Source: a virus (Duplodnaviria; Caudoviricetes). Taken from it: a stretch of 64,000 bases of DNA. The DNA lies in the IMG/VR virus record IMGVR_UViG_3300030055_000003. The stretch is one strand, 5' to 3'. A model generated the notes under the pieces. It did no database searches. It worked only from the letters and a program-made list of their open reading frames with translations, and was not told where the DNA came from. Positions within the stretch are counted from its first letter, which is position 1. Each line of letters starts with the position of its first letter. A program made the translations under genes and the position numbers. Shown in pieces: positions 482 to 53,208 of the stretch.

Positions 482-1333
482 CTAGGCTACATTGAGAAGA
501 TGATTTCTGTATTGGACAGGAGTCATCTTTTCTAAATCCCATTGATATCTATATTCGTTGTAATAAATCATGTATTGATTAACTTCTTCTTTTAGCGCAT
601 CTAAAGTTTCACATTGCTTTATATATGCCTCATCTTTAAAATGCCCGAAGAATGACTCTTGTGGAGCATTATCCCAACAATTACCTCGTCTAGACATAGA
701 TTGTCCTAATTTAGCATCTTTAACTACTTGTTGAAATTTAGGGCTAGTATAATGTACACCTTGATCAGAGTGGATAAATGCATCTTTATGTAATTCTATT
801 GATTTATTGTCTTTTAGATTCTGTATTGTATCAGTTACTATATCTAGTTTTAGACTCGATGATACATTATATGCTACTATTTCATTTGTGCTGGCATCTT
901 TAATTGTGGATAAGTATGCTTTTTGACCTTTACCATAAAATAAATATGTTATATCTGTTAGTAATATTTTACCTGGTATACCTTGTTTGAAATTTCTCTT
1001 TAGTAGATTTGGTAAAACAGTATGTTCTCTTGTTGCTTTCATCATTCTTCTATATGGATTTGCTTTTCTAATAGGACAAATGATACTATATTTTTTCATA
1101 ACTCTTCTAATACGCTTCAAGTTATATATAATTCCAAACTGACCTTCTAAAGTCATTTTAATTTGTCTAGCGCCCTTTTTACGATTTTTAAACTTATATG
1201 CCTTAATTATATTATCTCTAATCAACTCATCTTCTATATCTCTAGACTCTCTATATCCTTTAGATTTAGTTGAAAAATAATTATAGTACCCCGAACGTGA
1301 AACGCCTGCTAAATCACATAAATTGCTAATCAT
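482..1333 (-). CDS. IS3 OrfB transposase (HTH_21 + rve/DDE core)
   Basis: Motifs LLTDITY, HSDQGVHYTS, QSMSRRGNCWDNAPQESFFGHFKDE, YNEYR. Confidence 0.95.
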   Translation of the reverse strand: MISNLCDLAGVSRSGYYNYFSTKSKGYRESRDIEDELIRDNIIKAYKFKNRKKGARQIKMTLEGQFGIIYNLKRIRRVMKKYSIICPIRKANPYRRMMKATREHTVLPNLLKRNFKQGIPGKILLTDITYLFYGKGQKAYLSTIKDASTNEIVAYNVSSSLKLDIVTDTIQNLKDNKSIELHKDAFIHSDQGVHYTSPKFQQVVKDAKLGQSMSRRGNCWDNAPQESFFGHFKDEAYIKQCETLDALKEEVNQYMIYYNEYRYQWDLEKMTPVQYRNHLLNVA

Positions 1334-26847: not shown

Positions 26848-27930
26848 ATGGCAAGAGAAACAATAAAAGTATTCACAACAAATGAAGAAGAAATAAAAGC
26901 TATTCTTCCTTCAAATTTAGAATTGATGGAGGATTTTTTAAATTACTTAGAGACAACTGACCATGCAGAAACAACTATAACGGTATATAAAAATAATTTA
27001 GACATTTTCTTTGTTTATTTAATGAAAAATGAGAAAAATATAGACTTTGTAAACTTGAAAAAGAGACATGTAATGAACTTTCAAAATTATATGGTTAAAA
27101 ACAATCTATCTCCATCACGTATTAAAAATATCAAAAGTACTTTATCTTCTCTAAGTTTATTTATTGAGAGCGTATTAGACGAAGAAACTAAGTGGGAAAA
27201 TTTTAGAAATATAATAAATAAGATTCCAGCACCAAATAAAAGAGAAGTCCGAGAAAAAACTATTCTTAGTGATGAAGAATGTCAAATTTTATTGGATTAT
27301 TTAATAGAAAATAAAAAATATCAACAAGCATGTGCTTTTGCTCTCGGATTTGCATCAGGAAGAAGAAAATCAGAACTCTTGCGTTTCAAAAGAAGCTATA
27401 TAACTGAAGATAATTTACAATTTGGTTCATTATATAAGTCTCCTGAAAAAATTAAAACTAAAGGAGCAGGTGTTGCAGGAAAACCACTTTTTGTTTATAT
27501 ACTTAAAACTAAATTCAAACCCTATTTTGATTTATGGATGGAAGAAAGAAAGAGACTAGGAGTTCCAGATGAAATTGATGAAATATTTGTAAATAAAAGA
27601 AAAGGTATTTGGTATCCAGCAAAAATATCTTTATTGGATTCATATGCTACTAATTTTACTAAATTATTAAATAAAGATTTCTATTTTCACTGCTTAAGAC
27701 ATCAATTTACAAGTTCACTTGAATCTAGTAAAATACCTGCTTCGGTCATAAAAGACATAATTGGCTGGGAAAATATTAGTATGGTATCACTTTATTCGGA
27801 CAATGATCTCAGTAGTAAATTAGGAGATTATTTTTCAAAAGATGGAATTAAAGAAGTCAAACAGGGTTCTTTAAGTGATTTAGGTAATGAAGAATCTGAA
27901 TCTAGTTCATTTGGTGGCAATAGATTCTAA
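26848..27930 (+). CDS. Tyrosine recombinase / phage integrase family (SPbeta YomM-like)
   Basis: SAM-like N-domain; SGRRKSE, KTKG, HCLRH, IIGW, VSLY. Confidence 0.9.
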   Translation: MARETIKVFTTNEEEIKAILPSNLELMEDFLNYLETTDHAETTITVYKNNLDIFFVYLMKNEKNIDFVNLKKRHVMNFQNYMVKNNLSPSRIKNIKSTLSSLSLFIESVLDEETKWENFRNIINKIPAPNKREVREKTILSDEECQILLDYLIENKKYQQACAFALGFASGRRKSELLRFKRSYITEDNLQFGSLYKSPEKIKTKGAGVAGKPLFVYILKTKFKPYFDLWMEERKRLGVPDEIDEIFVNKRKGIWYPAKISLLDSYATNFTKLLNKDFYFHCLRHQFTSSLESSKIPASVIKDIIGWENISMVSLYSDNDLSSKLGDYFSKDGIKEVKQGSLSDLGNEESESSSFGGNRF

Positions 27931-33426: not shown

Positions 33427-34998
33427 TTAACCTAATCTTAAATAGTTATTTGTACCACTAGTGATTCTTAATCCATCATATTCTTGTACTGTTAATCCAA
33501 AATCCTTGACTAATTTCTTTTCTGTCTCGTCCATATCTTCATATTTTTTAGTAGCAAAATCTGGGGGCAACCAATTCTTACCTTTTCCACTCAAAATATT
33601 GAAAATCTCGAGATGTTGTTTATTTTTGTATTTGATATGAATAGTTTGTTTTTGATAACAATCTAAAATGAAATGCTCAGTTTCTATATTCTTATCACAT
33701 CGTTTAATTGCTTCAACTATCTCATTTGTATCAATATTATATTTTGTTCCTTTTATATTGTTGAATATTATGTTCAAATCATTTAATGTATCAGGAACTC
33801 TATAAAGATAATTACCATAGTATCCTATGATTGATTTATTATTTATCTTGTAACAACTGTTAGTTTTCCACCCAGAGAAAAGATAAATATTTTTATTCCA
33901 CATTGTATCAGAATAATAGCTTTTATAAGTTAAATCATCAAATACTCTAGCTACAGTTTCTTCATAGCTTTTTGGTATAGCCTGTATTAATTCTTCATAG
34001 AAATATCTAACATTCTCTATTGTAAAAGCTATATTCTGTTGTTTTTCCATATTACACGAAAAATTATCTCTCAACTTAGTAGGTAGTTTCTTTTTAAATT
34101 CTGTTTCTTCAATAAATTTATTCCAATATTTTAGTGTTAAATGTGCTATAAATCCATTAACAGTTAATTTATCAGCATGAACTTTATCATCACATAATCT
34201 TATTACATTTTCAACACCAAAGCCTGAAAGCAATTTACTAACTCTCATTTGTTCTTTAAATAATTCAATAGAAGCATTTTTAGCAACGTTAAATTCAAAA
34301 ACTAACTTTTCTAATTTATTCATATTCGGTATTAGAGATTGCAGATTATTAATATGAATATTGGGATTTTCCCTTTTAAATTCTCTTTCAAACATAGTTT
34401 CAGTATTGGACATTGGAACATTTATATATACCATTGCAGTTTCTACATCTGTTTCTCTTTCTGATTCACTAAAAGCATTTTGTATGTATTCTATATCGCC
34501 ATCATATTGTTCTATAAGACTTATAAGCTTCTTTCTAGTATTATTATATGGATTTTTAAGAGTCTCTGCATTAAGTAAGCATAATACTCTTCCACCGACT
34601 CTTTCTTGTGTCTCTATAGCTTTTAAACAATGTTTATCTCCTTCAGAATAAGGAGGATTCATTATTATTAAGTCATAGAATTTAGGTGGATCGAATGTAA
34701 GAAAGTTATCCCATACAACATTATATTTCTGTCCTCTTAATAAATTATTTAAATTTTCATCAAATTCAATAACATCAAATTTTAAATAATCCTTTGCTTT
34801 CTTTCCATAGGAAATCATTCTTCTACAATTAGTTTCGTAGTATTCTTCATATGCCTGTACTATATCTCCTTTTCCGCATGAAGGCTCTAGAATATGTTGG
34901 ATTGAAGCAAGACTTAGTTGTTCTTCTTTAAGTTTATCTAACATTTTATATATTAATTTTTTTGGTGTTGGGTAAAAATCTTTATTTTCTGTAAACAT
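33427..34998 (-). CDS. SAM-dependent N6-adenine DNA methyltransferase with DUF4942-like C-terminus
   Basis: FYPTP, ILEPSCGKGDI (motif I), IIMNPPYS (motif IV). Confidence 0.85.
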   Translation of the reverse strand: MFTENKDFYPTPKKLIYKMLDKLKEEQLSLASIQHILEPSCGKGDIVQAYEEYYETNCRRMISYGKKAKDYLKFDVIEFDENLNNLLRGQKYNVVWDNFLTFDPPKFYDLIIMNPPYSEGDKHCLKAIETQERVGGRVLCLLNAETLKNPYNNTRKKLISLIEQYDGDIEYIQNAFSESERETDVETAMVYINVPMSNTETMFEREFKRENPNIHINNLQSLIPNMNKLEKLVFEFNVAKNASIELFKEQMRVSKLLSGFGVENVIRLCDDKVHADKLTVNGFIAHLTLKYWNKFIEETEFKKKLPTKLRDNFSCNMEKQQNIAFTIENVRYFYEELIQAIPKSYEETVARVFDDLTYKSYYSDTMWNKNIYLFSGWKTNSCYKINNKSIIGYYGNYLYRVPDTLNDLNIIFNNIKGTKYNIDTNEIVEAIKRCDKNIETEHFILDCYQKQTIHIKYKNKQHLEIFNILSGKGKNWLPPDFATKKYEDMDETEKKLVKDFGLTVQEYDGLRITSGTNNYLRLG

Positions 34999-38967: not shown

Positions 38968-40926
38968 CTATTCACATTTAGTAAAGCCACAATCTACACA
39001 ACTTATACATCCACCAGAATGTTCTAGTTCATGTCCACATTCGGGGCATTTATTAAATCTTAATGCAAATGCAATATCCCCATTATCTTTTTTAAACTTT
39101 AATTCTTCATCTGTAAAGTTTGCTTTAGTTTCTACCATTTGTTCATTTAATTTATTTATTACTTCTATGGTTTGATTTGATATTTCTTTTAAAAATGTTT
39201 TTATTTCTCTTAATATAGCAGTTCCACAACTATTACCTTGACTTAATTGTATTCCTTTTGCTCTTTGAGTTGAAAAACTATTGCATCCACCAACACCTTC
39301 AAAAGATTTCTCTATATTGAATAAGTTTCCTCCTAGTCTTAACATACCACTCATTGCTATAACCATTCCTTGAAGATTTCTTTCACATCCTCCAGATCCT
39401 GACCTAATTACATACATGTCTTGTATTGCTTGTTCTGTATTTGACCAACCTATCATTAATTTAAGTTTGCCACAACCTATTTTAACTTTTCTTTCGTAGT
39501 AAACTGTATCCTTAGCTTTTGGCTTCCATTGACCTCTTTCTAAAGTTGATATTAATTCATTAGCTTTTTCTTCTTCTGTTTTTTCAGTAATCATTATACC
39601 TTGTCTTATAGGATTCGGTCTAAATATAGTGCAACCTTTAATTCCATTTTCCCAACAGAATTCATAAACCTTTTTAACATCTTCAAATGGATACTCAGTG
39701 GGGATATTAATAGTTTTACTACATGACATATCTACGTGAAATGCTATAGTTTTAAGAACATCTAAGTGTGCTTGTACAGGTAAATTCATTGCAGTAACAA
39801 AAATATCTTCTTTTACAATACAATCTTTATTACCTTTAATTTCATTCCATACTTTGTAAGCATAATCCTCCATCTTAACTATCTTAATATCATCATCTGA
39901 CTGACCACCTAATTTTACCTTCCTATCATACGATAGACTAAATATAGGTTCTAAGCCAGAACTTGTATTGCTCCCAAAAGTTAATGACATTGTGCCCGTG
40001 GGAGCAACGCTCATAATCTTTGAATTTCTGATGCCATATTTTAATATATCATCAGCTAAATCTATCCATTCATTGTCTTTTTCCATATGTTTTTGAATAT
40101 ATCCACTTTTAATGTACTTTTCTCTATCTAAGAATGGGAAGCCACCTTTTTCTTTAGCTAACTGAACACTTGCCTTAAAGGCTTCTTTTGATATGAAGTT
40201 CATTATTTCATCAATGACTTCTAATGATTCTTTACTTCCGTAAACCATATTTAACATACATAAAGCATCTCCAAGCCCAGTAATTCCAAGCCCTATAGTT
40301 CTAAATGCTTCTTGATAGTTTCTATATATTTCATCTGGGAAGTTATTTATATCAATTATATTATCTAAAAATTTAACTGCACTATGAGTTGTTTCGCTTA
40401 ATTTTTTATAATCAATCTTTGCTTTAGATGTAAAAGGATTATCTATCATATTATGTAAGAATATACTTCCTAGATTACATGCACCACCATAATCGTTACG
40501 GTTTAATGGTTCTTTTGTAATAGGGTTGTTCCCATAAACTGTTCCTGCTAAATACTCAGCACAAGGATTACTACAAACAATATTTTCTATATACCATACT
40601 GTATTATCTTTATTCATGTTATCATAGAAGAAAATCCCTGGCTCTCCATTATCATAAGCTTTCTTCATAATTGAATCCCATAAATATCTTGCACTTATTT
40701 CTTTCTTATATTTCCATTGTGATTCATCTTTTAAGACATATCCTTTATCATCATATACTGGATAGTGTAAGAATATAGTTTCATCTTTTTTAACAGAATT
40801 CATAAAATCATTATCAACCATAACTGTTACATTAAAATGAACTAGTTTTCCTTCATCATAAGATTTTGCATTTATAAAATCTTCAATGTCCATATTATAT
40901 ATTGAGCATACGCCCATATTTGCTCC
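38968..40926 (-). CDS. nrdJ: Class II (B12-dependent) ribonucleotide reductase, exon 2
   Basis: GANMG, NPCAEY (thiyl Cys), GACNLGS, SVAPTGT, C-terminal TSCPD-like and CxxC...CxxC; no nrdB/F partner nearby. Confidence 0.92.
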   Translation of the reverse strand, partial: GANMGVCSIYNMDIEDFINAKSYDEGKLVHFNVTVMVDNDFMNSVKKDETIFLHYPVYDDKGYVLKDESQWKYKKEISARYLWDSIMKKAYDNGEPGIFFYDNMNKDNTVWYIENIVCSNPCAEYLAGTVYGNNPITKEPLNRNDYGGACNLGSIFLHNMIDNPFTSKAKIDYKKLSETTHSAVKFLDNIIDINNFPDEIYRNYQEAFRTIGLGITGLGDALCMLNMVYGSKESLEVIDEIMNFISKEAFKASVQLAKEKGGFPFLDREKYIKSGYIQKHMEKDNEWIDLADDILKYGIRNSKIMSVAPTGTMSLTFGSNTSSGLEPIFSLSYDRKVKLGGQSDDDIKIVKMEDYAYKVWNEIKGNKDCIVKEDIFVTAMNLPVQAHLDVLKTIAFHVDMSCSKTINIPTEYPFEDVKKVYEFCWENGIKGCTIFRPNPIRQGIMITEKTEEEKANELISTLERGQWKPKAKDTVYYERKVKIGCGKLKLMIGWSNTEQAIQDMYVIRSGSGGCERNLQGMVIAMSGMLRLGGNLFNIEKSFEGVGGCNSFSTQRAKGIQLSQGNSCGTAILREIKTFLKEISNQTIEVINKLNEQMVETKANFTDEELKFKKDNGDIAFALRFNKCPECGHELEHSGGCISCVDCGFTKCE

Positions 40927-41966
40927 CATACTGTAATCTTCTATTACTAGAAGTGTCGGACTATATCTTAATTTAATTTATTCAATTAAACCTTGGGTAC
41001 TATTGAGGTTATTAAAATATATTGCTATATCTCCTCTAGTCTCTACACCCTCCTACTCTGTAGGCACGGCTCGGTATTAACTTTTATTCAAAGCTTTCAC
41101 CGAATTCTCCCAATTCTAGACGCAGAGCTTCTGCCTTATTATACTTTCTGTTTAATATTATGAAATTATTATCTGGATATATGTAATGTAAAAATTCTAA
41201 TACTTGTTTTTTTGATGCCATTTCAATTACATAACATTTTTCATTGGCTTTAGGTCTTATTTTACTACTAATATCATTTTTATCTAATATGTTTTGAATT
41301 CCTTCCAACATATGGTATTGTGAAGTAAAACTTATTTTTTGCCAAATTCTATCTCTGTCTTTACGTTTGCCCCATGTTATACAACCTTCTGCATCAAAAA
41401 ACCCTTGAACAAGATATCTTTCTAATCTAGGCTTAATCATTGGAATATGTCTTTCTTCTTTTAATCGTCCACCAAATAGCATTTTTATATCTCTAACAAT
41501 ATGGTTTTCACCTATTTTAAAACCAATATGAGGGAATTGCTTTTTAGTTTTATCTAATTTGTTAGATATATTACTATGCCCTCCTATTTCACTTATCATA
41601 AAGTCTATAATTTCTCTATCATCTAATTGAACATCTATCTCAAATTTATCATCTTTAGATAGACAACCATCTCCTAATAAAAAACCTAATATATAAGCCT
41701 TTTCTTTGGTATCAATTTTATGAAAATAATCTATTTTATAATCAGCAACTTTTGCATATTTATTTAGGTCTTGCAATCCATATTGTTTAATATAATTTAT
41801 TACATTCCAATATTTAATTCCTGTGATTCCTTCTATTTTTCTACTTGAAAAACCTTGTTCTAAGTATTTTGTTAATATTTCCTTTGATAATTGATATTCC
41901 ATAATAAATCTCTCCTTACTCTTTTACGTATTTGTAATTTTCAAGATACTCGTATAATAACTATTT
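40927..41966 (-). ncRNA. Group I self-splicing intron (1040 nt) in nrdJ
   Basis: Exon 1 ends in U (CGU), intron ends in G; splicing restores Q-G-G-R-R-G-A-N-M-G. Core elements AAUUCGGUGAAA, AAUACCGAGCC, GUAGAGACUA, AAGAUAUAGUCC. IGS GCUCUGCGUCU at 41118-41128. Confidence 0.92.
41084..41902 (-). CDS. Intron-encoded double-motif LAGLIDADG homing endonuclease
   Basis: YILGFLLGDG and LVQGFFDAEG; N-terminal HTH. Confidence 0.92.
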   Translation of the reverse strand: MEYQLSKEILTKYLEQGFSSRKIEGITGIKYWNVINYIKQYGLQDLNKYAKVADYKIDYFHKIDTKEKAYILGFLLGDGCLSKDDKFEIDVQLDDREIIDFMISEIGGHSNISNKLDKTKKQFPHIGFKIGENHIVRDIKMLFGGRLKEERHIPMIKPRLERYLVQGFFDAEGCITWGKRKDRDRIWQKISFTSQYHMLEGIQNILDKNDISSKIRPKANEKCYVIEMASKKQVLEFLHYIYPDNNFIILNRKYNKAEALRLELGEFGESFE

Positions 41967-42407
41967 ACGTCTTCCACCTTGAAGTATTGTAGCAGTTTGT
42001 GCATTAAATACATCCATAAAGCTTACATTACCACTTGCTATAGCATCATTAGAAGTAGGAGTTCCTTTTGGTCTTAATTGCGAAAAATCGTAGCCTATTC
42101 CTCCTCCTTTTTGATGTGTTAAAGCTCCTAATTTTACTTTATTAAATATATCTTGTAAATCATCTTGTATTTGTGGGGCAACGAAACAATTATTTAATGT
42201 TAGGGATGTTCCTATTCCACTATTACTCATAGTTCTTCCTGCTGGATAAAATAATCCTTTATCTAATACATTATAAAATTCTTCTGCTTCTTTTTCATTA
42301 GTTGAACAGTAATCACTAACCCTATGTAAATTTTCATCAATTGATTCTCCGTTTTTAGAGTATCTATCTTCCCAAATTTTATAAAGTATTTCATTTTCGA
42401 TTTTCAT
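41967..42407 (-). CDS. nrdJ: Class II ribonucleotide reductase, exon 1
   Basis: IWEDRY, FYPAGR, LNNCFV, QKGGGIGYDFSQLRPKG, ASGNVSFM; 147 codons ending QGGRR. Confidence 0.92.
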
Positions 42408-46056: not shown

Positions 46057-46105
46057 ATAATATACCAACTAATTTATAAAGTCAATATGTATCTATTAAT
46101 TTATT
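46057..46105 (-). promoter_or_regulatory. sigmaA promoter with upstream AATAAATTAATA box
   Basis: AATAAATTAATA-N8-TTGACT-N17-TATTAT. Confidence 0.7.
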
Positions 46106-46679
46106 TAACTATATATCCACGTAGTTTTTTTACGCCATATGAATTAGCTCTTTTCTTCCATTGTTCTCTAGTTTCCCCATCCCATCTTTCAACATACATA
46201 TCTATATGATTAGATGAATTAAAATTACTTCCACCTTTATCTGAGACAATACGAGTTCCATAATCTTTTTCTAGAAATATTTTAGTTCCTAATGGCAATA
46301 TATTATTTGCAATAACACCTCGTTCTAAAGGTCTACCCTTGCAATCAACATTTCCATGGATACTATTTTCTTCTTCAAGACCTGTATAAAAAGTAACTAT
46401 AAACTCTTGCCACTCAATATTATCATCTTCTTTTACATTTTTCAATTCATTTGTCTTTTGTTCTTTAGATTCCTTTTTCTCAAGTTCTAACTTATCTTTT
46501 TCAAATTGTATTTCAAAACTTTTTAATTTAAAATCTTGTACCATTTCAACATCAATTTGCTTTTCAATTGATTGCTCCGCTAGGCTATGAAACGGTGCTT
46601 GTACATTTGTTGGATAAGTAAATAATAAACTTGTACTTAACAAACATACAATCCTCTTTCCTCTTAGCAATGTCATCAT
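46101..46679 (-). CDS. Secreted 3D-domain (cell-wall-binding/lytic) protein
   Basis: Signal-peptide-like N-terminus; VTFYT...IANNILPLGTKI...VSDKGG...HIDMYV. Confidence 0.8.
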   Translation of the reverse strand: MMTLLRGKRIVCLLSTSLLFTYPTNVQAPFHSLAEQSIEKQIDVEMVQDFKLKSFEIQFEKDKLELEKKESKEQKTNELKNVKEDDNIEWQEFIVTFYTGLEEENSIHGNVDCKGRPLERGVIANNILPLGTKIFLEKDYGTRIVSDKGGSNFNSSNHIDMYVERWDGETREQWKKRANSYGVKKLRGYIVK

Positions 46680-46706: not shown

Positions 46707-47570
46707 TTACATATTTATTAAATTAGTAACTTTTTCTACGTTGTTTGCAATTTCTACAATATTAGTAGTTTGTTCTTGTATTCCAGCAGAAACTTCTTCC
46801 ATACCTGCTGATGTTTCAATCATACTAGTATTTATTTCTTCTATGTTAGAAATTCTAAATACACTACTTGCTTTTAACTTTGCACTATTTTCTTTTCCAG
46901 TTTCAGTTTTAATTAGTATAACACTAGTCATATTTTGGAGTTCTTTTATATTCTTACTTATCATTATGCTAAATCCTTTAGATTCTTCTGATAATTTTTT
47001 GATTTCATTTGCAACTACTGTGAACCCACGACCATATTCTCCTGCCCTTGCTGATTCAATACTAGCGTTTAATGATAATAAATTAGTTTGGTCTGCAATC
47101 CCTTTAATTGCTTCTGCTATTTTTGAAATATCTTTCATTTTAATATCTAACTCATTTGTGGAATTGTAAATATCTTCAATATCATTATTAAACGTATCCA
47201 TAATTCCACCATTGTTTTTAGCACCTTCATATGCCATGTCAACCCTTTCAGCTATACTAAATATAGTTGCATTGATTTCTTCTACTGTTGCGGTTAATTC
47301 CTCTGATATAGAAGCTTGTGATGAAACTGAAGTGTTAATATTATTAATGTCTTTTGACAATGTTAGTTTTGTATCATTTACTTCTTCTTTGATTTTATTT
47401 AATAGGTTGTCTTTTTCAATTAATTCTGTATGTAGTTCATCATTTTGTGCCTCTAGTTCTTTGATTTTATTATCACTTTCAATTCTTAAAGATTCTAGTT
47501 TATCATTCATTTCCTTTTCTAAAGATTTTCTTAGTTTATTTAACTCTTTTTCATTTTTAAATATTTTCAT
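46707..47570 (-). CDS. Soluble methyl-accepting chemotaxis protein (signalling domain only)
   Basis: [40 protein letters not shown]; methylation-type helices [10 protein letters not shown] and [13 protein letters not shown]; no TM or sensor domain. Confidence 0.92.
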
Positions 47571-47659
47571 GTTGATACACTCCTTCTTATTTTAAATTTT
47601 ATTCTTTCTGTTTTTAATAGCTTATATATTGTATCATCTTTCATTATTAGTTTCTCCTT

Positions 47660-47920
47660 TTATATTTTAATTTCTGTTACTTCATCTTTAATTTCTATTT
47701 CTTTATCCTTATTAAAATCGTAATGTGTTGTGCTATTCATTGTAATTTTACTTTGAAAATAGAATTTTTCATTACAATTATCTGTTAAACATCTAGCTAC
47801 AAATTCTACATATTTTTGACTTTCTATTTCTACTAACTTGTAATCATTAGTTAATTGATAGTTGCATTGTTCACATCTTGGACAGTAGATTTTGTTTTCT
47901 TTTAGAATTGCTTTAAACAT
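47660..47920 (-). CDS. Zinc-ribbon protein
   Basis: CPRC...C....C. Confidence 0.6.
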   Translation of the reverse strand: MFKAILKENKIYCPRCEQCNYQLTNDYKLVEIESQKYVEFVARCLTDNCNEKFYFQSKITMNSTTHYDFNKDKEIEIKDEVTEIKI

Positions 47921-49124: not shown

Positions 49125-51194
49125 TTATTGTTTAATTGATAGAACTTTTGCTGAGGTTACTTTCCAGTTCTCCTTTTTTGATTTAAAAACTGTAACCCCT
49201 TGGGTTGAACGTGATGATTTTGCATTTACATTAGATGTATTAATGACTTTCACTTTGTTAAATGAATCAGTTAATTCTATTTCTACATCATCTGTTATTT
49301 GAACAATCAATAAAGGTAATCCATTCTCACTACTAGTCAAACAATTGGACAACTTAGTTCTATTGGTTTTCGTCTCATAACTTGAAAGATTAACCTTAGC
49401 TATTTTACCTGAATCATAGACTATAACTACATAGCCTTTATAATTATTTGTACATAACATTCCTATAATTGATTCATCATTAGATAGTCCTAACATAGTA
49501 GGAAGATATATGCCTAATTGTGATGGCTTAGATTCAGATATATCTGATAAGTTTAACATATAAGCATCACCTTTATTTGATATAAATATTACCTTACCTT
49601 TATTTGAGCATTGAATGGTACTAATGACTTCATCGTTTTCTTTTAATTTTTGATTATCTGCATCTGCAAATCTTCTTGTTTTCTTATAATACATACTATT
49701 TGTTAAAATATTTGTAGTTGTAAAATCTTCAATTAAATCCCTATTATCTATTTTAATGACTTTATCTTCATATAGGATATCTGTTTTTCTAGTTTGATTA
49801 TACTTCTTTTTAACTTCGTCAAGTTGTTCAATGATAATGTTATTTATATTTTCTTCTAAAGATAAGGTACTAGATATATTTTCTATTTCTTTAGATATAT
49901 TATCAACATCTTTTATTCTATTATTTATATAACCTTTATTAATATTTAATAATTTAATAGATACAACATATTCTGCTTGTTCTTTATCTAAATTAAATTC
50001 ATGCATAACATTATTAGTTGCGTCATCATCATTTTTTGAATTTCTTATCACCTCTAAAACTCTATCTAAATCTACCAATATTGATTTCAAGCCAGTCAAT
50101 TTATGTAATCTATCATTTAATTTATCATAATCAAATTGTAATTCGTTTTTAATACATACTTGTCTATGATAAATCCATTTATTAAAAATATCTTGTAATG
50201 ATACTAATACTGGAGTTTTTCCATCTAAGTCAAGTATTGTAAAATTACAAGCAAACTTACTTTCATAGGATGTAAATTTTCTTAATTTTTGAATTACTGT
50301 CTCAATATCTGCATTCTTTTTTAAATATAATTCTAGTTTTAGACCATCTTTATCTGAACCATTGTGATAATCAGTTAATTCTTTAGAGAATTTGTCTATG
50401 TTATTTTCTAGTTCATCTTCTATATTTTCAATATAAGTAGTATAAGGAATTTCATAAATTGTAATTGTATTAGTATCTTTGTCATATTTATATTTTCCAA
50501 GTATAGTAAATGACCCATTTCCAGTTGTATAAATTTTATCAAATATGTTTTTGTCATAAATAATTTGACCACCACTAGGTAAATCAGGGACTTTTATTAA
50601 CTCAATTGATTTATTTATATCTTTTGTTTTTATATATGATGTTATACTACTACAAACATCTTCCATATTATGAGAAGGCATTCTATTTGCTTCTGCAACT
50701 GCAATACTTATTCTCAAATTGGTTAGTATATTAGGTATTTTAGATGGTAGGAATACGGGTTCTTTTTCAGTGGCATCATAATTCCATTTCATTGGAACTG
50801 CATTTTTATTTATCCCTTCCAACATGTTTTCAGCATATGTATCTAGCTTGCATTCTATATATCTAGGAGCTGAACCTTTACCATCTCTAGAATTCTTATT
50901 TCCATAACTTCCTTTAGGGACTAAATATTTGTTTAATGAATAATTATTTCCTAGATTCTTCATAACTCCATAAAGCGGAGCATCTCCTAATGTATAATAA
51001 TTAAATATAGCACCACCAGCTTTTAACATTTTATAAAATTGTTTATCGCTTGTCATTCCTGCTTTTTTCATCCCCCAAATAACTTGTCTCTGAGAAACTA
51101 ATAATCCATCTATTGATGGCAAATTATTAATTATTACAGGTGCAGTAAAATCTAACATTTCGGTTTGTAAAACTTCTACTATTCCTTTTTTCAT
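49125..51194 (-). CDS. gyrA: Type IIA topoisomerase subunit A (GyrA/ParC-like)
   Basis: LPSIDGL, GDAPLY, SAPRY (catalytic Tyr), EPVFLPS, PDLPSGG, IYEIPY; reduced C-terminal pinwheel repeats. Gyrase versus topo IV activity cannot be assigned. Confidence 0.85.
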   Translation of the reverse strand: MKKGIVEVLQTEMLDFTAPVIINNLPSIDGLLVSQRQVIWGMKKAGMTSDKQFYKMLKAGGAIFNYYTLGDAPLYGVMKNLGNNYSLNKYLVPKGSYGNKNSRDGKGSAPRYIECKLDTYAENMLEGINKNAVPMKWNYDATEKEPVFLPSKIPNILTNLRISIAVAEANRMPSHNMEDVCSSITSYIKTKDINKSIELIKVPDLPSGGQIIYDKNIFDKIYTTGNGSFTILGKYKYDKDTNTITIYEIPYTTYIENIEDELENNIDKFSKELTDYHNGSDKDGLKLELYLKKNADIETVIQKLRKFTSYESKFACNFTILDLDGKTPVLVSLQDIFNKWIYHRQVCIKNELQFDYDKLNDRLHKLTGLKSILVDLDRVLEVIRNSKNDDDATNNVMHEFNLDKEQAEYVVSIKLLNINKGYINNRIKDVDNISKEIENISSTLSLEENINNIIIEQLDEVKKKYNQTRKTDILYEDKVIKIDNRDLIEDFTTTNILTNSMYYKKTRRFADADNQKLKENDEVISTIQCSNKGKVIFISNKGDAYMLNLSDISESKPSQLGIYLPTMLGLSNDESIIGMLCTNNYKGYVVIVYDSGKIAKVNLSSYETKTNRTKLSNCLTSSENGLPLLIVQITDDVEIELTDSFNKVKVINTSNVNAKSSRSTQGVTVFKSKKENWKVTSAKVLSIKQ

Positions 51195-51207
51195 TTTATA
51201 ATTCCTC

Positions 51208-53208
51208 CTAATTAATTTCTTCTAAGTTTACATTTGTTATAAATTCTTTAACGAATTCCTTTCTTGGCTGAGTATTCTCTCCCATATAATCTTCAAAATA
51301 CTTAGCTACAATTTCATCAAAATTATCATATGTAACTTGAATAAATGTCTTCTCTCTAACTTCTGGACACAATACCTTTTCCCAAAAATCATCGGCATTT
51401 ATTTCTCCGATTCCTTTCACTATTCCTATATTGTATATATCATTAGTGTCTATTGTCTTCATTAATTCTTCTTTTTCTCTGTCATTATATGCATATATCA
51501 TTTCTCCACTTTTCATTTTAATTTCATATCTTGGAGAAATTATTATATAAACTCTATCTTCTTTTAATAAAGTTGGTAAATATTTATATATAAAAGTTAA
51601 TAAGGCAAGACGAATTCCTGACCCCCAGCAATCAGCATCTGTAAGTATTCCTATATTTCCATATCTTAAATTGTTCTTATCAAATGTTTTTATATCTTTG
51701 AATGCTTTCCTTTCTTCATATGGAATTTCTATACCACAACCTAATGCAGATATTAAAGTAAACGCAGGAACATTATTTAAAACTCTATCTACAGTGGTTT
51801 TTAAACAGGAAATAAATCTTCCTTTCAAACCAACAGCTCCCATCGTATTATTATCATAACTATCAACTACTGTAGATTTAGCAGAAAGCCCTTCCACAAC
51901 TAATAAAAATCTTTCATCTAATGCACTTTTCTTCATATTGCAATCTGTCAAACCCTCTATTTTAACTCTTCCGCTTTTATTTGCTTCTTCAAGTTTCTTT
52001 TTTATGTTCTTTTTAGCAACTTCTCCATGTTCTCGTACTCTTTTATTAATTAATATTTGATTGCTTATAAGTGAACCAATTAATGGATTCTCAGTAAAAA
52101 AGATATATAATTTCTCTCTTAAAAAATCAGTTACATGAGATTGCATAAATTTAGATTTAATCTTTTTCTTAGCTTGATCTGTATATAATGAAATAGTTGA
52201 ATATGTATCACTAATTATTACTAAACTGTCTTGAATATCGTCAAATGTCACTTTCTTTTCTTTGTTTTTATATAAATTTTTTTCAGTTATGTATTTGTCA
52301 ATAGCATAAGTAAATCCATTTTTAATAAAGTCTTGGGGCGTTCCCCCATTTTCAAGAAAGGAAGAATTGTGATAGTACTGAATTAAATTAATATCATTAT
52401 TAAAGGCAAAAGTGATATTAGACTTAATGACGAATATCTCATCATCTTTATTTTCTCGACCTTCTCCTTCAGTTGTCCATTTAATTATATCTGTTAAAGA
52501 TGATTGTTTAGTATCTAATTCTTTAATATAATCAATAGTTCCATTTTCATAATAAAAAACTAATTCTTCATCTGTATTTTCATCTTTATAAGTAAATTTC
52601 AAGTCATCATTTATAATTGCTTGTTGTTGCAATATATCAATTATAAATTCTTTTGTTATATCATTATCGCCTTTAAATACTTCTTTAGATGGTATCCAAT
52701 GTATGATAGTTCCAGTAGAATCAAAATTATGAGTAGTTTCTTCAAACTCACCAACTTGAATTCCTTTTTCATACCTTACATGATATTTTATATTGTTAGG
52801 TGCAAATGCAGTAGCCTCTAAAAAATCAGCAGTCGCCGAGCTACCAAAATTTCCCATTCCATTTGTGCCACATGACCATTTATAATTACCATTTTTAGTT
52901 TTTGAATTGTTTTCATATTTTCCACCAGACCACATTTCTTCAAATATCTTTTTATAAGCATATTCCCCTTGTGAATTTTTAGCCATTGGTAACGAACGTC
53001 CAAAATCTTGAATAGAAATAGAATTATCTTTATATTTTGTTACTATGATTTGTTTTCCATATCCTTCTCTATATTCATCAATAGCATTCATTAGTATTTC
53101 TATGAATGTATGTGAATGAGATTCAAGTCCTATTGACGCAGGTTTTGCACGTACTCCACCTAAAATACCTAATGATTGTATTGAGTCTGTATTATATGTG
53201 TTGCTCAT
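51208..53208 (-). CDS. gyrB: Type IIA topoisomerase subunit B (GyrB/ParE-like)
   Basis: GHKL ATPase EILMNAIDE, DFGRSLP, GGKY, NGMG; TOPRIM VEGLSA, TDADCWG, KGIGEIN. Confidence 0.88.
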   Translation of the reverse strand: MSNTYNTDSIQSLGILGGVRAKPASIGLESHSHTFIEILMNAIDEYREGYGKQIIVTKYKDNSISIQDFGRSLPMAKNSQGEYAYKKIFEEMWSGGKYENNSKTKNGNYKWSCGTNGMGNFGSSATADFLEATAFAPNNIKYHVRYEKGIQVGEFEETTHNFDSTGTIIHWIPSKEVFKGDNDITKEFIIDILQQQAIINDDLKFTYKDENTDEELVFYYENGTIDYIKELDTKQSSLTDIIKWTTEGEGRENKDDEIFVIKSNITFAFNNDINLIQYYHNSSFLENGGTPQDFIKNGFTYAIDKYITEKNLYKNKEKKVTFDDIQDSLVIISDTYSTISLYTDQAKKKIKSKFMQSHVTDFLREKLYIFFTENPLIGSLISNQILINKRVREHGEVAKKNIKKKLEEANKSGRVKIEGLTDCNMKKSALDERFLLVVEGLSAKSTVVDSYDNNTMGAVGLKGRFISCLKTTVDRVLNNVPAFTLISALGCGIEIPYEERKAFKDIKTFDKNNLRYGNIGILTDADCWGSGIRLALLTFIYKYLPTLLKEDRVYIIISPRYEIKMKSGEMIYAYNDREKEELMKTIDTNDIYNIGIVKGIGEINADDFWEKVLCPEVREKTFIQVTYDNFDEIVAKYFEDYMGENTQPRKEFVKEFITNVNLEEIN

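Follow-up and report, generated by a model that had tools for sequence, protein, structure and literature searches.

What use could a bacteriophage make of a chemoreceptor that has no recognisable means of sensing anything? The question is raised by a gene in a 64,000-nucleotide stretch of tailed-phage DNA (referred to here as the window), which encodes a small soluble MCP, hereafter the mini-MCP. An original prediction, made from the sequence alone, had proposed that this protein, made early in infection, joins the receptor arrays of the host to bias its swimming or to serve as a dominant-negative decoy, a possible hijack of host chemotaxis. The reading favoured here, to which we give a probability of about 0.45, is that the mini-MCP engages the CheW and CheA of the host and uncouples kinase output from the environment.

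The gene is an intact minus-strand ORF with an ATG start and a product of 287 residues (Table 1). The only Pfam domain in this product is MCPsignal (PF00015), matched at residues 111-284 (E 4.7e-29; 101.9 bits against a cut-off of 34.6) over profile positions 5-171 of 172. No second Pfam domain reached threshold, HAMP, PAS and other sensor domains were not found, and the protein is without a hydrophobic or transmembrane segment, its best 19-residue Kyte-Doolittle mean being 0.74. A search of NCBIfam gave sub-threshold matches to MCP models only. The profile PHROG 8572 also matches (E 3.6e-33), and since the match is confined to positions 255-502 of 533, the sensor half is absent from the mini-MCP. 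The phage-encoded, sensor-less MCP of the original prediction is thereby borne out. An SMC-like or DNA-related role was considered and rejected, as the sole SMC signal (E 9e-4) amounts to coiled-coil similarity, and the defence-system models of PADLOC matched neither the mini-MCP nor its downstream neighbour nor the long paralogue described below.

Table 1. Features of the mini-MCP gene and its product, with the downstream gene and the long form found in other phages. Positions are those of the window unless a contig is named.
Feature	Position	Strand	Basis or remark
Mini-MCP coding sequence (P0001)	46707..47570	-	Stop codon included; ORF list, translation, Pfam MCPsignal, PHROG 8572
Ribosome-binding site AAGGAG	47580..47585	-	9 nt before the ATG; read from the sequence
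Residues 1-20, phage-family-specific N-terminal motif, consensus M..LFKNEKGL.ELR	47511..47570	-	Alignment of orthologues
Residues 21-85, variable N-terminal helix	47316..47510	-	AF2 helix; least conserved segment
Residues 86-102, two heptad-spaced methylation-consensus motifs (EE 90/91, 97/98)	47265..47315	-	Motif scan, Tsr alignment
Residues 155-197, hairpin tip	46980..47108	-	Most conserved segment; near the T. maritima TM1143 tip
Residues 254-263, C-arm methylation-consensus motif (EE 258/259)	46782..46811	-	Motif scan
192-aa downstream gene, possibly 3D/YuiC-like	46101..46679	-	Signal-peptide-like N-terminus, Lys/Glu-rich linker, C-terminal domain
Long form	L180:6001-7287 (P0051); also P0052-P0055, P0273, P0324		C-terminal domain without Pfam match

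An AF2 model of the mini-MCP, built on 27 orthologues, has a pLDDT of 90 and is helical over residues 7-286. Foldseek aligned this model with the cytoplasmic hairpin of Tsr (3zx6_B; TM 0.74, rmsd 1.5 A) and with Tsr in the E. coli core signalling unit 8c5v (8c5v_I; TM 0.71), and gave further matches to 1qu7 and 3g67. Judged by these models, the mini-MCP is predicted to adopt the long antiparallel helical hairpin of the MCP signalling family. About 65 N-terminal residues fall outside the Tsr superposition. With an N-arm of 178 aa and a C-arm of 109 aa (about 15.6 heptads), the first ~70 residues are left with no partner helix in the same chain. Conservation across the alignment is highest in the tip (residues 141-215), next highest in residues 1-20 and in the first methylation helix, and lowest in residues 21-85. 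Within the N-terminal motif, F4, N6 and K8 are invariant across the 27 orthologues, and the pattern F[KN]NxK occurs in the first 15 residues of 44 of 240 collected proteins, every one of them a family member or a long paralogue.

In characterised receptors, the tip of the MCP hairpin binds CheW and CheA and makes the trimer contacts. Here, the tip motif N-L-L-A/S-L-N-A-x-I-E-x-A-R-A-G-E-x-G-R/K-G-F-x-V-V-A-x-E at residues 163-189 is invariant or nearly so in the 27 orthologues, and residues 155-198 of the alignment contain 20 invariant columns. E178 corresponds to Tsr E391, and at the equivalents of the trimer and CheW contact sites of Tsr the mini-MCP matches TM1143. The tip is of the Thermotoga/Firmicute type, with an Asp at position 160 where Tsr has F373. 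Serines that replace alanines in the tip (S166, S170 and S173) were examined as a phage-specific feature and rejected, being present in cellular MCPs of Lachnospiraceae and Bacillus as well.

A scan with the methylation consensus [ASTG][ASTG]xx[EQ][EQ]xx[ASTG][ASTG] found three putative sites in the mini-MCP, at residues 86-95, 93-102 and 254-263, the first two of which fall at Tsr positions E304 and Q311 in a gapless alignment to Tsr 279-481. Pair 90/91 is EE in 47 of 47 family members and pair 97/98 is EE or QE in all 47, while the C-arm pair 258/259 is EQ or EE in 42. Even in the broad clade, at 29-31% identity, A94 and E98 are invariant. In solved receptors, such Glu/Gln pairs are exposed on the bundle surface, and their conservation here argues that host CheR, CheB and CheD would still recognise the mini-MCP. 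A C-terminal pentapeptide tether is absent, the protein ending in ...NLINM. The canonical tip and the three consensus motifs agree with the intact tip and methylation-type helices originally read from the sequence.

The length of the bundle was compared with that of known receptor classes. In the scheme of Alexander and Zhulin, the 36H class has 18 heptads per arm and no indels relative to Tsr and Tar. Tsr and Tar are 36H receptors, and those of B. subtilis and T. maritima are 44H. Alignments pair mini-MCP residues 66-268 with Tsr 279-481 and residues 26-267 with Tar 237-478, at zero net indel in either case, but the C-arm, at about 15.6 heptads, falls short of 18 and ends about 17 residues before that of Tsr. 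Against the 44H receptor TM1143, the alignment requires two 7-residue gaps in the N-arm, with a further 7-residue gap and smaller offsets in the C-arm, so the bundle of the mini-MCP is the shorter one.

The phage that carries this gene is evidently large. The window comes from an IMG/VR virus record of 120,845 bp whose completeness is put at 49%, and because an identical copy of the mini-MCP lies on contigs of 248 and 284 kb, the source is a jumbo phage. Its GC content is about 26%, and the full stretch is present in 24 peat metagenome runs, with no RNA run among those listed. The plus-strand half of the window holds a phiKZ-like tail sheath gene with other tail and head genes, and the minus-strand half holds Pol III alpha, topoisomerase II, RNR, NAD ligase and dUTPase, with the mini-MCP gene between topoisomerase II and RNR. 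No tRNA was found within the window, and a megablast search of 15 kb against cultured-phage records gave zero matches. The nearest relative of its Pol III alpha is that of Clostridioides phage pCD1602_4 (56%), and the nearest of its topoisomerase A is that of Clostridium phage c-st (45%). These relationships, together with the 26% GC, make a Clostridia-like Firmicute a plausible host.

The window has several further features. The RNR large-subunit gene (38968-42407, minus strand) is split into pieces at about 41961-42407 and 38968-40929, between which lies a free-standing LAGLIDADG endonuclease gene (41084-41902), an arrangement that resembles an intron or homing-element insertion. An rve-type transposase gene occurs near the start of the window (482-1333, minus strand), and a 523-aa protein with a Dam-like adenine methyltransferase region and DUF4942 is encoded at 33427-34998 (minus strand). 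A tyrosine recombinase gene (26848-27930, plus strand) lies at the junction of the structural and replication blocks. The presence of this recombinase makes a carrier or lysogenic state possible; together with the transposase, it may point to a temperate or plasmid-like jumbo phage, or to one that resolves dimers.

The immediate neighbours of the gene are conserved in related loci. The downstream gene starts 27 nt past the mini-MCP stop codon with no terminator between them, and in 13 of 16 loci the gene that follows the MCP directly is of this kind (29-77% identity). It had been described as an adjacent secreted 3D-domain gene, and the adjacency (here found to be conserved) and a signal-peptide-like N-terminus hold good; the 3D assignment itself is only weakly supported by the profile matches. 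The product scores 16.5 bits against Pfam 3D, under the cut-off of 23.8 (E 0.0099), with better values for YuiC (E 0.002, profile) and SpsC (1.3e-7), and 5 of 10 orthologues match Pfam 3D, at a best E of 5e-4. D147 and D160 are invariant, and the presumed first of the three Asp positions of the 3D domain reads Ala-Asn-Asn. Directly upstream of the MCP gene, at 47660-47920 (minus strand), lies an 86-aa Cys-rich ORF (CxxC, zinc-ribbon-like) whose conservation across four related loci is 68-76% and which matches no known family. Further upstream, topoisomerase II (49125-53208, minus strand) is only 26-40% identical to its counterparts on contigs L006, L010, L011 and L172, whose adjacent MCPs are 57-73% identical, and in L006 the two topoisomerase II subunits are fused in one protein of 1348 aa. 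The far greater divergence of topoisomerase II than of the adjoining MCP suggests that the topoisomerase genes have been replaced in some phage lineages.

Relatives of the mini-MCP are numerous and of uniform length. A word-indexed search of 5.8 billion proteins recovered ~50 full-length orthologues of 287-295 aa at 45-81% identity, beyond which similarity to other MCPs falls abruptly. Among viral contigs, a single-sequence scan found no relatives, and an alignment-based scan found them. The gene order in every long contig examined is topoisomerase II, a few small ORFs, the MCP, the 3D-like gene and RNR, and each of five related phage records contains exactly one MCP, one of these records being rated 100% complete and another having terminal repeats. 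In another related contig (L176, IMGVR_UViG_3300014827_000173; topoisomerase A 57%, B 60%), no MCP occurs in the 7 kb downstream of the topoisomerase, so the gene is not universal at that position in the wider group.

This distribution bears on another explanation, namely that the gene is a functionless fragment captured from a host and carried along passively by the phage. Truncated host genes are indeed found in phages, and here the signalling module alone is present. Nevertheless, dN/dS is 0.12-0.25 (Nei-Gojobori, least saturated pairs), and several pairs of genomes show more conservation in the MCP than in topoisomerase II. The orthologues are intact and alike in length over many samples and phage types, frequent disruption was not seen among them, and synteny is kept in related phages. 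Composition likewise argues against capture, GC3 (0.153) being like that of other genes of the phage and codon usage broadly similar (r 0.84, with other phage genes at 0.93-0.99). No close cellular parent was found either: in a scan of 185,579 prokaryote species, each represented by a single genome, the best relatives among the matches listed reach at most ~41% identity and over part of the length only. A recent, decaying host fragment, which the original prediction had set as its own counter-case, is contradicted by these data and is extremely improbable. Selection and synteny mark the mini-MCP as a maintained phage gene under purifying selection and not debris.

The cellular searches also delimit the family. 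Among the matches listed in the same species scan, there was no orthologue of the mini-MCP, and the best match among longer proteins shares 39% identity over 47% of the query. An exhaustive HMMER search of 1.84 billion representatives returned 217,412 MCP-domain proteins, only 19 of them at E<=1e-30, and the matches that run end to end are 273-304 aa long. A tblastn search of plasmids gave ordinary cellular MCPs only, at no more than 31% identity, and the BFVD library of viral structures contained no comparable model, only generic coiled-coil matches at 8-16% identity. A phylogeny against host receptors had been proposed as a check, and when they are placed in a tree alongside 89 cellular MCPs, the phage-type forms, with the long form described below among them, all fall into one clade (SH-aLRT 98). 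In the first tree, the nearest named cellular neighbours were HAMP-containing MCPs of Lachnospiraceae, whose alignment with the phage protein is free of gaps.

Family members with this architecture also occur farther afield, at 36-39% identity, on other types of phage contig. Two of them (L184:7001-7864 and L185:5431-6315) lie between RecU and SSB on contigs of 36-60 kb, where Phage_rep_org_N and DnaC-like genes belong to the same replication modules, and another sits amid small ORFs on a contig with a DNA methyltransferase. Contigs of this size show that the family is not a speciality of jumbo phages. Some phages encode a long form of 419-434 aa, in which the same N-terminal motif and core are followed by a C-terminal domain. 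This domain is modelled (pLDDT 82) with a STAS fold like that of SpoIIAA or RsbS (Foldseek E 1e-4, TMt 0.62-0.68), and the long-form sequences read do not conserve the site of the SpoIIAA phospho-serine motif. In one phage, a long form is found ~40 kb from the short form, between alpha-amylase-like and KAS III-like genes. Taken together, the trees and searches describe what appears to be a phage-restricted, monophyletic clade of soluble mini-MCPs that spans jumbo and mid-size phages. Both the breadth of this family and its STAS-fused form had escaped the original prediction.

How might such a protein act? CheW, the CheA dimerisation domain, CheR and Response_reg are absent from the record that contains the window and from four related phage records, in line with the earlier remark that no che genes lie nearby. 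In the phage records thus lacking CheW and CheA of their own, the mini-MCP has to work with host partners. We infer the course of events that would follow, from partner binding to array formation and a change in motility. The phage would make a soluble, input-less receptor, probably together with its replication genes; the one pointer to early expression is the place of the gene in the replication-gene block. The mini-MCP would fold as the usual MCP helical hairpin and dimerise, and its canonical tip of the Firmicute/Thermotoga type would bind host CheW and CheA. The dimers could then enter the receptor arrays of the host or build cytoplasmic double-layer arrays of their own. Since the mini-MCP has no sensor, captured CheA would be uncoupled from the environment and cease to report it, and the navigation of an infected or phage-carrying cell would be jammed or locked at a fixed output.

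The binding step was modelled with two copies of the tip (residues 120-236) and CheW of B. subtilis as a stand-in for that of the host. The complex scored 0.55, against 0.01 for the best control, with at least 96% contact agreement between runs and a partner pLDDT of at least 77. The mark that this score passes is reached by 58 of 80 solved complexes and by 2 of 110 mismatched pairs, and scores of 0.60 or less account for only 7 of the 80 solved complexes and for both of the mismatches that passed. The pass may reflect only a likeness to solved receptor-CheW structures. The modelled complex, which had been suggested as a check, therefore lends weak support to the binding of CheW by the tip dimer. 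As for arrays, cytoplasmic fragments of transmembrane E. coli receptors are known to form CheA/CheW sandwich arrays (PMC3964821). A mismatch in bundle length between the mini-MCP, which aligns to 36H receptors without heptad indels, and the 44H receptors of B. subtilis and T. maritima could keep the protein out of membrane arrays.

Some features of the mini-MCP would be needless in a pure plug, namely the conserved methylation sites, the N-terminal motif and the extra helix of 70 residues, and these hint at an input or at another partner. The protein could conceivably be a working receptor with a cryptic cytoplasmic input, received through the FKNxK motif and helix or through the signalling bundle, and would then confer a new tactic response in place of jamming. 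The input might be a host metabolite, a phage protein or a signal of the state of infection. The motif is specific to the family and conserved, three of its residues being invariant; conserved methylation sites are the hallmark of receptors that adapt; and the long paralogues add a STAS-like domain, as if the scaffold took input modules. Soluble cellular MCPs such as YfmS and HemAT of B. subtilis do exist, and the signalling domain of McpB directly senses ethanol (PMC7542364). Against this, the mini-MCP has no recognisable ligand-binding domain, the helix that would receive the input is the least conserved part of the protein, and no candidate ligand or partner has been identified, which together make a cryptic input rather unlikely. 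The same methylation sites would serve an abundant substrate that titrates CheR, CheB or CheD off the host receptors and so disables adaptation instead of kinase coupling. Such a sink would profit from the first site being EE throughout the family and from A94 and E98 being invariant across the broad clade, and Gln at some sites implies that recognition by the deamidase is retained. It would have no need of a tip, which is nevertheless more conserved than the methylation helices, and it would be served poorly by a protein without the pentapeptide tether; a sink is accordingly very improbable.

Chemotaxis may also be beside the point, the MCP tip or coiled coil serving as an address or scaffold (for the cell pole, for arrays or for a higher-order lattice), or feeding another pathway such as partner switching. 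Replication or recombination genes always surround this gene, which lies between topoisomerase II and RNR in jumbo phages and between RecU and SSB in mid-size ones, and it is tightly paired with the gene of a secreted 3D-like wall protein. The SpoIIAA/RsbS-like fold of the long form fits as well, and the STAS fusion in related phages points to signalling beyond chemotaxis. Yet the position of a phage gene is weak evidence of its function, the defence-system models gave zero matches, and the similarity to SMC proteins is coiled-coil noise. Moreover, the invariant residues are those of the CheW/CheA/trimer tip and of the CheR/CheB sites, for which a generic scaffold would have no need, and we regard this explanation as quite unlikely. 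Uncoupling of host CheA from the environment is the reading favoured here; the conserved N-terminal motif and the STAS-fused paralogues leave some probability to a sensor or a non-chemotactic role. A broader version of the favoured reading, which we hold to be on the doubtful side, is that phage-only mini-receptors serve Firmicute phages, from temperate-type ones of 40 kb to jumbo phages of 250 kb, as a general means of takeover, by which CheA/CheW arrays are seized and a cell that is infected or carries the phage is steered; a coupling to the state of infection might run through the N-terminal motif or the STAS domain.

A conserved family confined to phages suggests that phages with a mini-MCP may interfere with the steering of their hosts, and there is a rationale for doing so. 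The course of phage epidemics is shaped by chemotactic migration. Work on migrating bacterial fronts has shown that they can outrun phage (PMC13674483) and that they can shed infected cells, a process called migratory culling (PMC11648663). As chemotactic migration lets bacteria escape or cull phage in these ways, a phage gene that alters host navigation could be favoured by selection. A phage gene that rewires host navigation would be a viral countermove to chemotactic escape, of which no characterised example was found. If true, it would mean that a virus manipulates bacterial behaviour directly at the chemosensory array, which would be a first. The members of the family are small, soluble, easily expressed and conserved in many phages, and the partners CheW, CheA, CheR, CheB and CheD are well understood, so that a steering or paralysis of hosts is directly testable. 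For chemotaxis research, the mini-MCP offers a natural minimal receptor, trimmed by evolution to what array binding and adaptation need.

Phage MCPs as such are not new. Phage MCP genes have been annotated before, including in a survey of phages of ammonia oxidisers, and soluble sensor-less MCPs are known from cells (YfmS, Tm14). Our literature searches found such genome-survey mentions and no functional study of any phage MCP, in keeping with the original view that this is not a characterised phage function. What is new is that half-size receptors, soluble and sensor-less, form a monophyletic clade confined to phages; they have an N-terminal motif of their own, are found in very different phages and include a STAS-fused variant. 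PHROG 8572, Vibrio phage vB_VmeM-Yong (290 kb) and Microcystis phage MaAM05 share MCP signalling domains with the mini-MCP, and it is mostly jumbo phages that carry such genes without the rest of the pathway, as is the case here. The profile of PHROG 8572 has 533 positions, though, and the MaAM05 ORF has 508 aa, whereas the mini-MCP is about half that size.

Among cellular receptors, Tsr and Tar of E. coli (36H; 1QU7, 3ZX6, 6S1K, 8C5V) share with the mini-MCP the hairpin fold, the positions of the methylation motifs and the canonical tip motif. They also have a periplasmic sensor, transmembrane helices, a HAMP domain and the NWETF tether, all of which the mini-MCP lacks, whereas the mini-MCP has an extra N-terminal helix with a phage-specific motif and is encoded by a phage without che genes. 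Its best sequence match in the PDB is TM1143 of T. maritima (44H; 2CH7; E 7e-23), with 28 of 36 tip residues alike from Q161 to E196, and Tm14 (3G67, 3UR1) resembles it in being soluble; both are cellular proteins that work with their own CheA and CheW, in contrast to the phage-encoded mini-MCP. YfmS of B. subtilis, a soluble MCP of 286 aa (PMC7542364; integrative model 9A72), is of nearly equal size and likewise possesses the MCP signalling domain only. It is the nearest architectural analogue in a Firmicute, although a close sequence relationship was not found, and it is chromosomal and part of the host's own system. In a Bacillus MCP of 288 aa (P0117), the tip lies near residue 130, which is the reverse of the arm asymmetry of the mini-MCP (178/109). 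Cytoplasmic receptors of the YfmS and Tm14 type sit in cells with a che pathway of their own, whereas the phages with a mini-MCP are without CheW, CheA, CheR and receiver domains. The behaviour proposed for the mini-MCP has a precedent in engineered E. coli receptor fragments and natural cytoplasmic arrays, where sensor-less hairpins with CheA and CheW form hexagonal double-layer arrays (Briegel et al. 2014, PMC3964821); those systems are laboratory constructs or host-encoded receptors, whereas the mini-MCP is a natural, selected phage gene.
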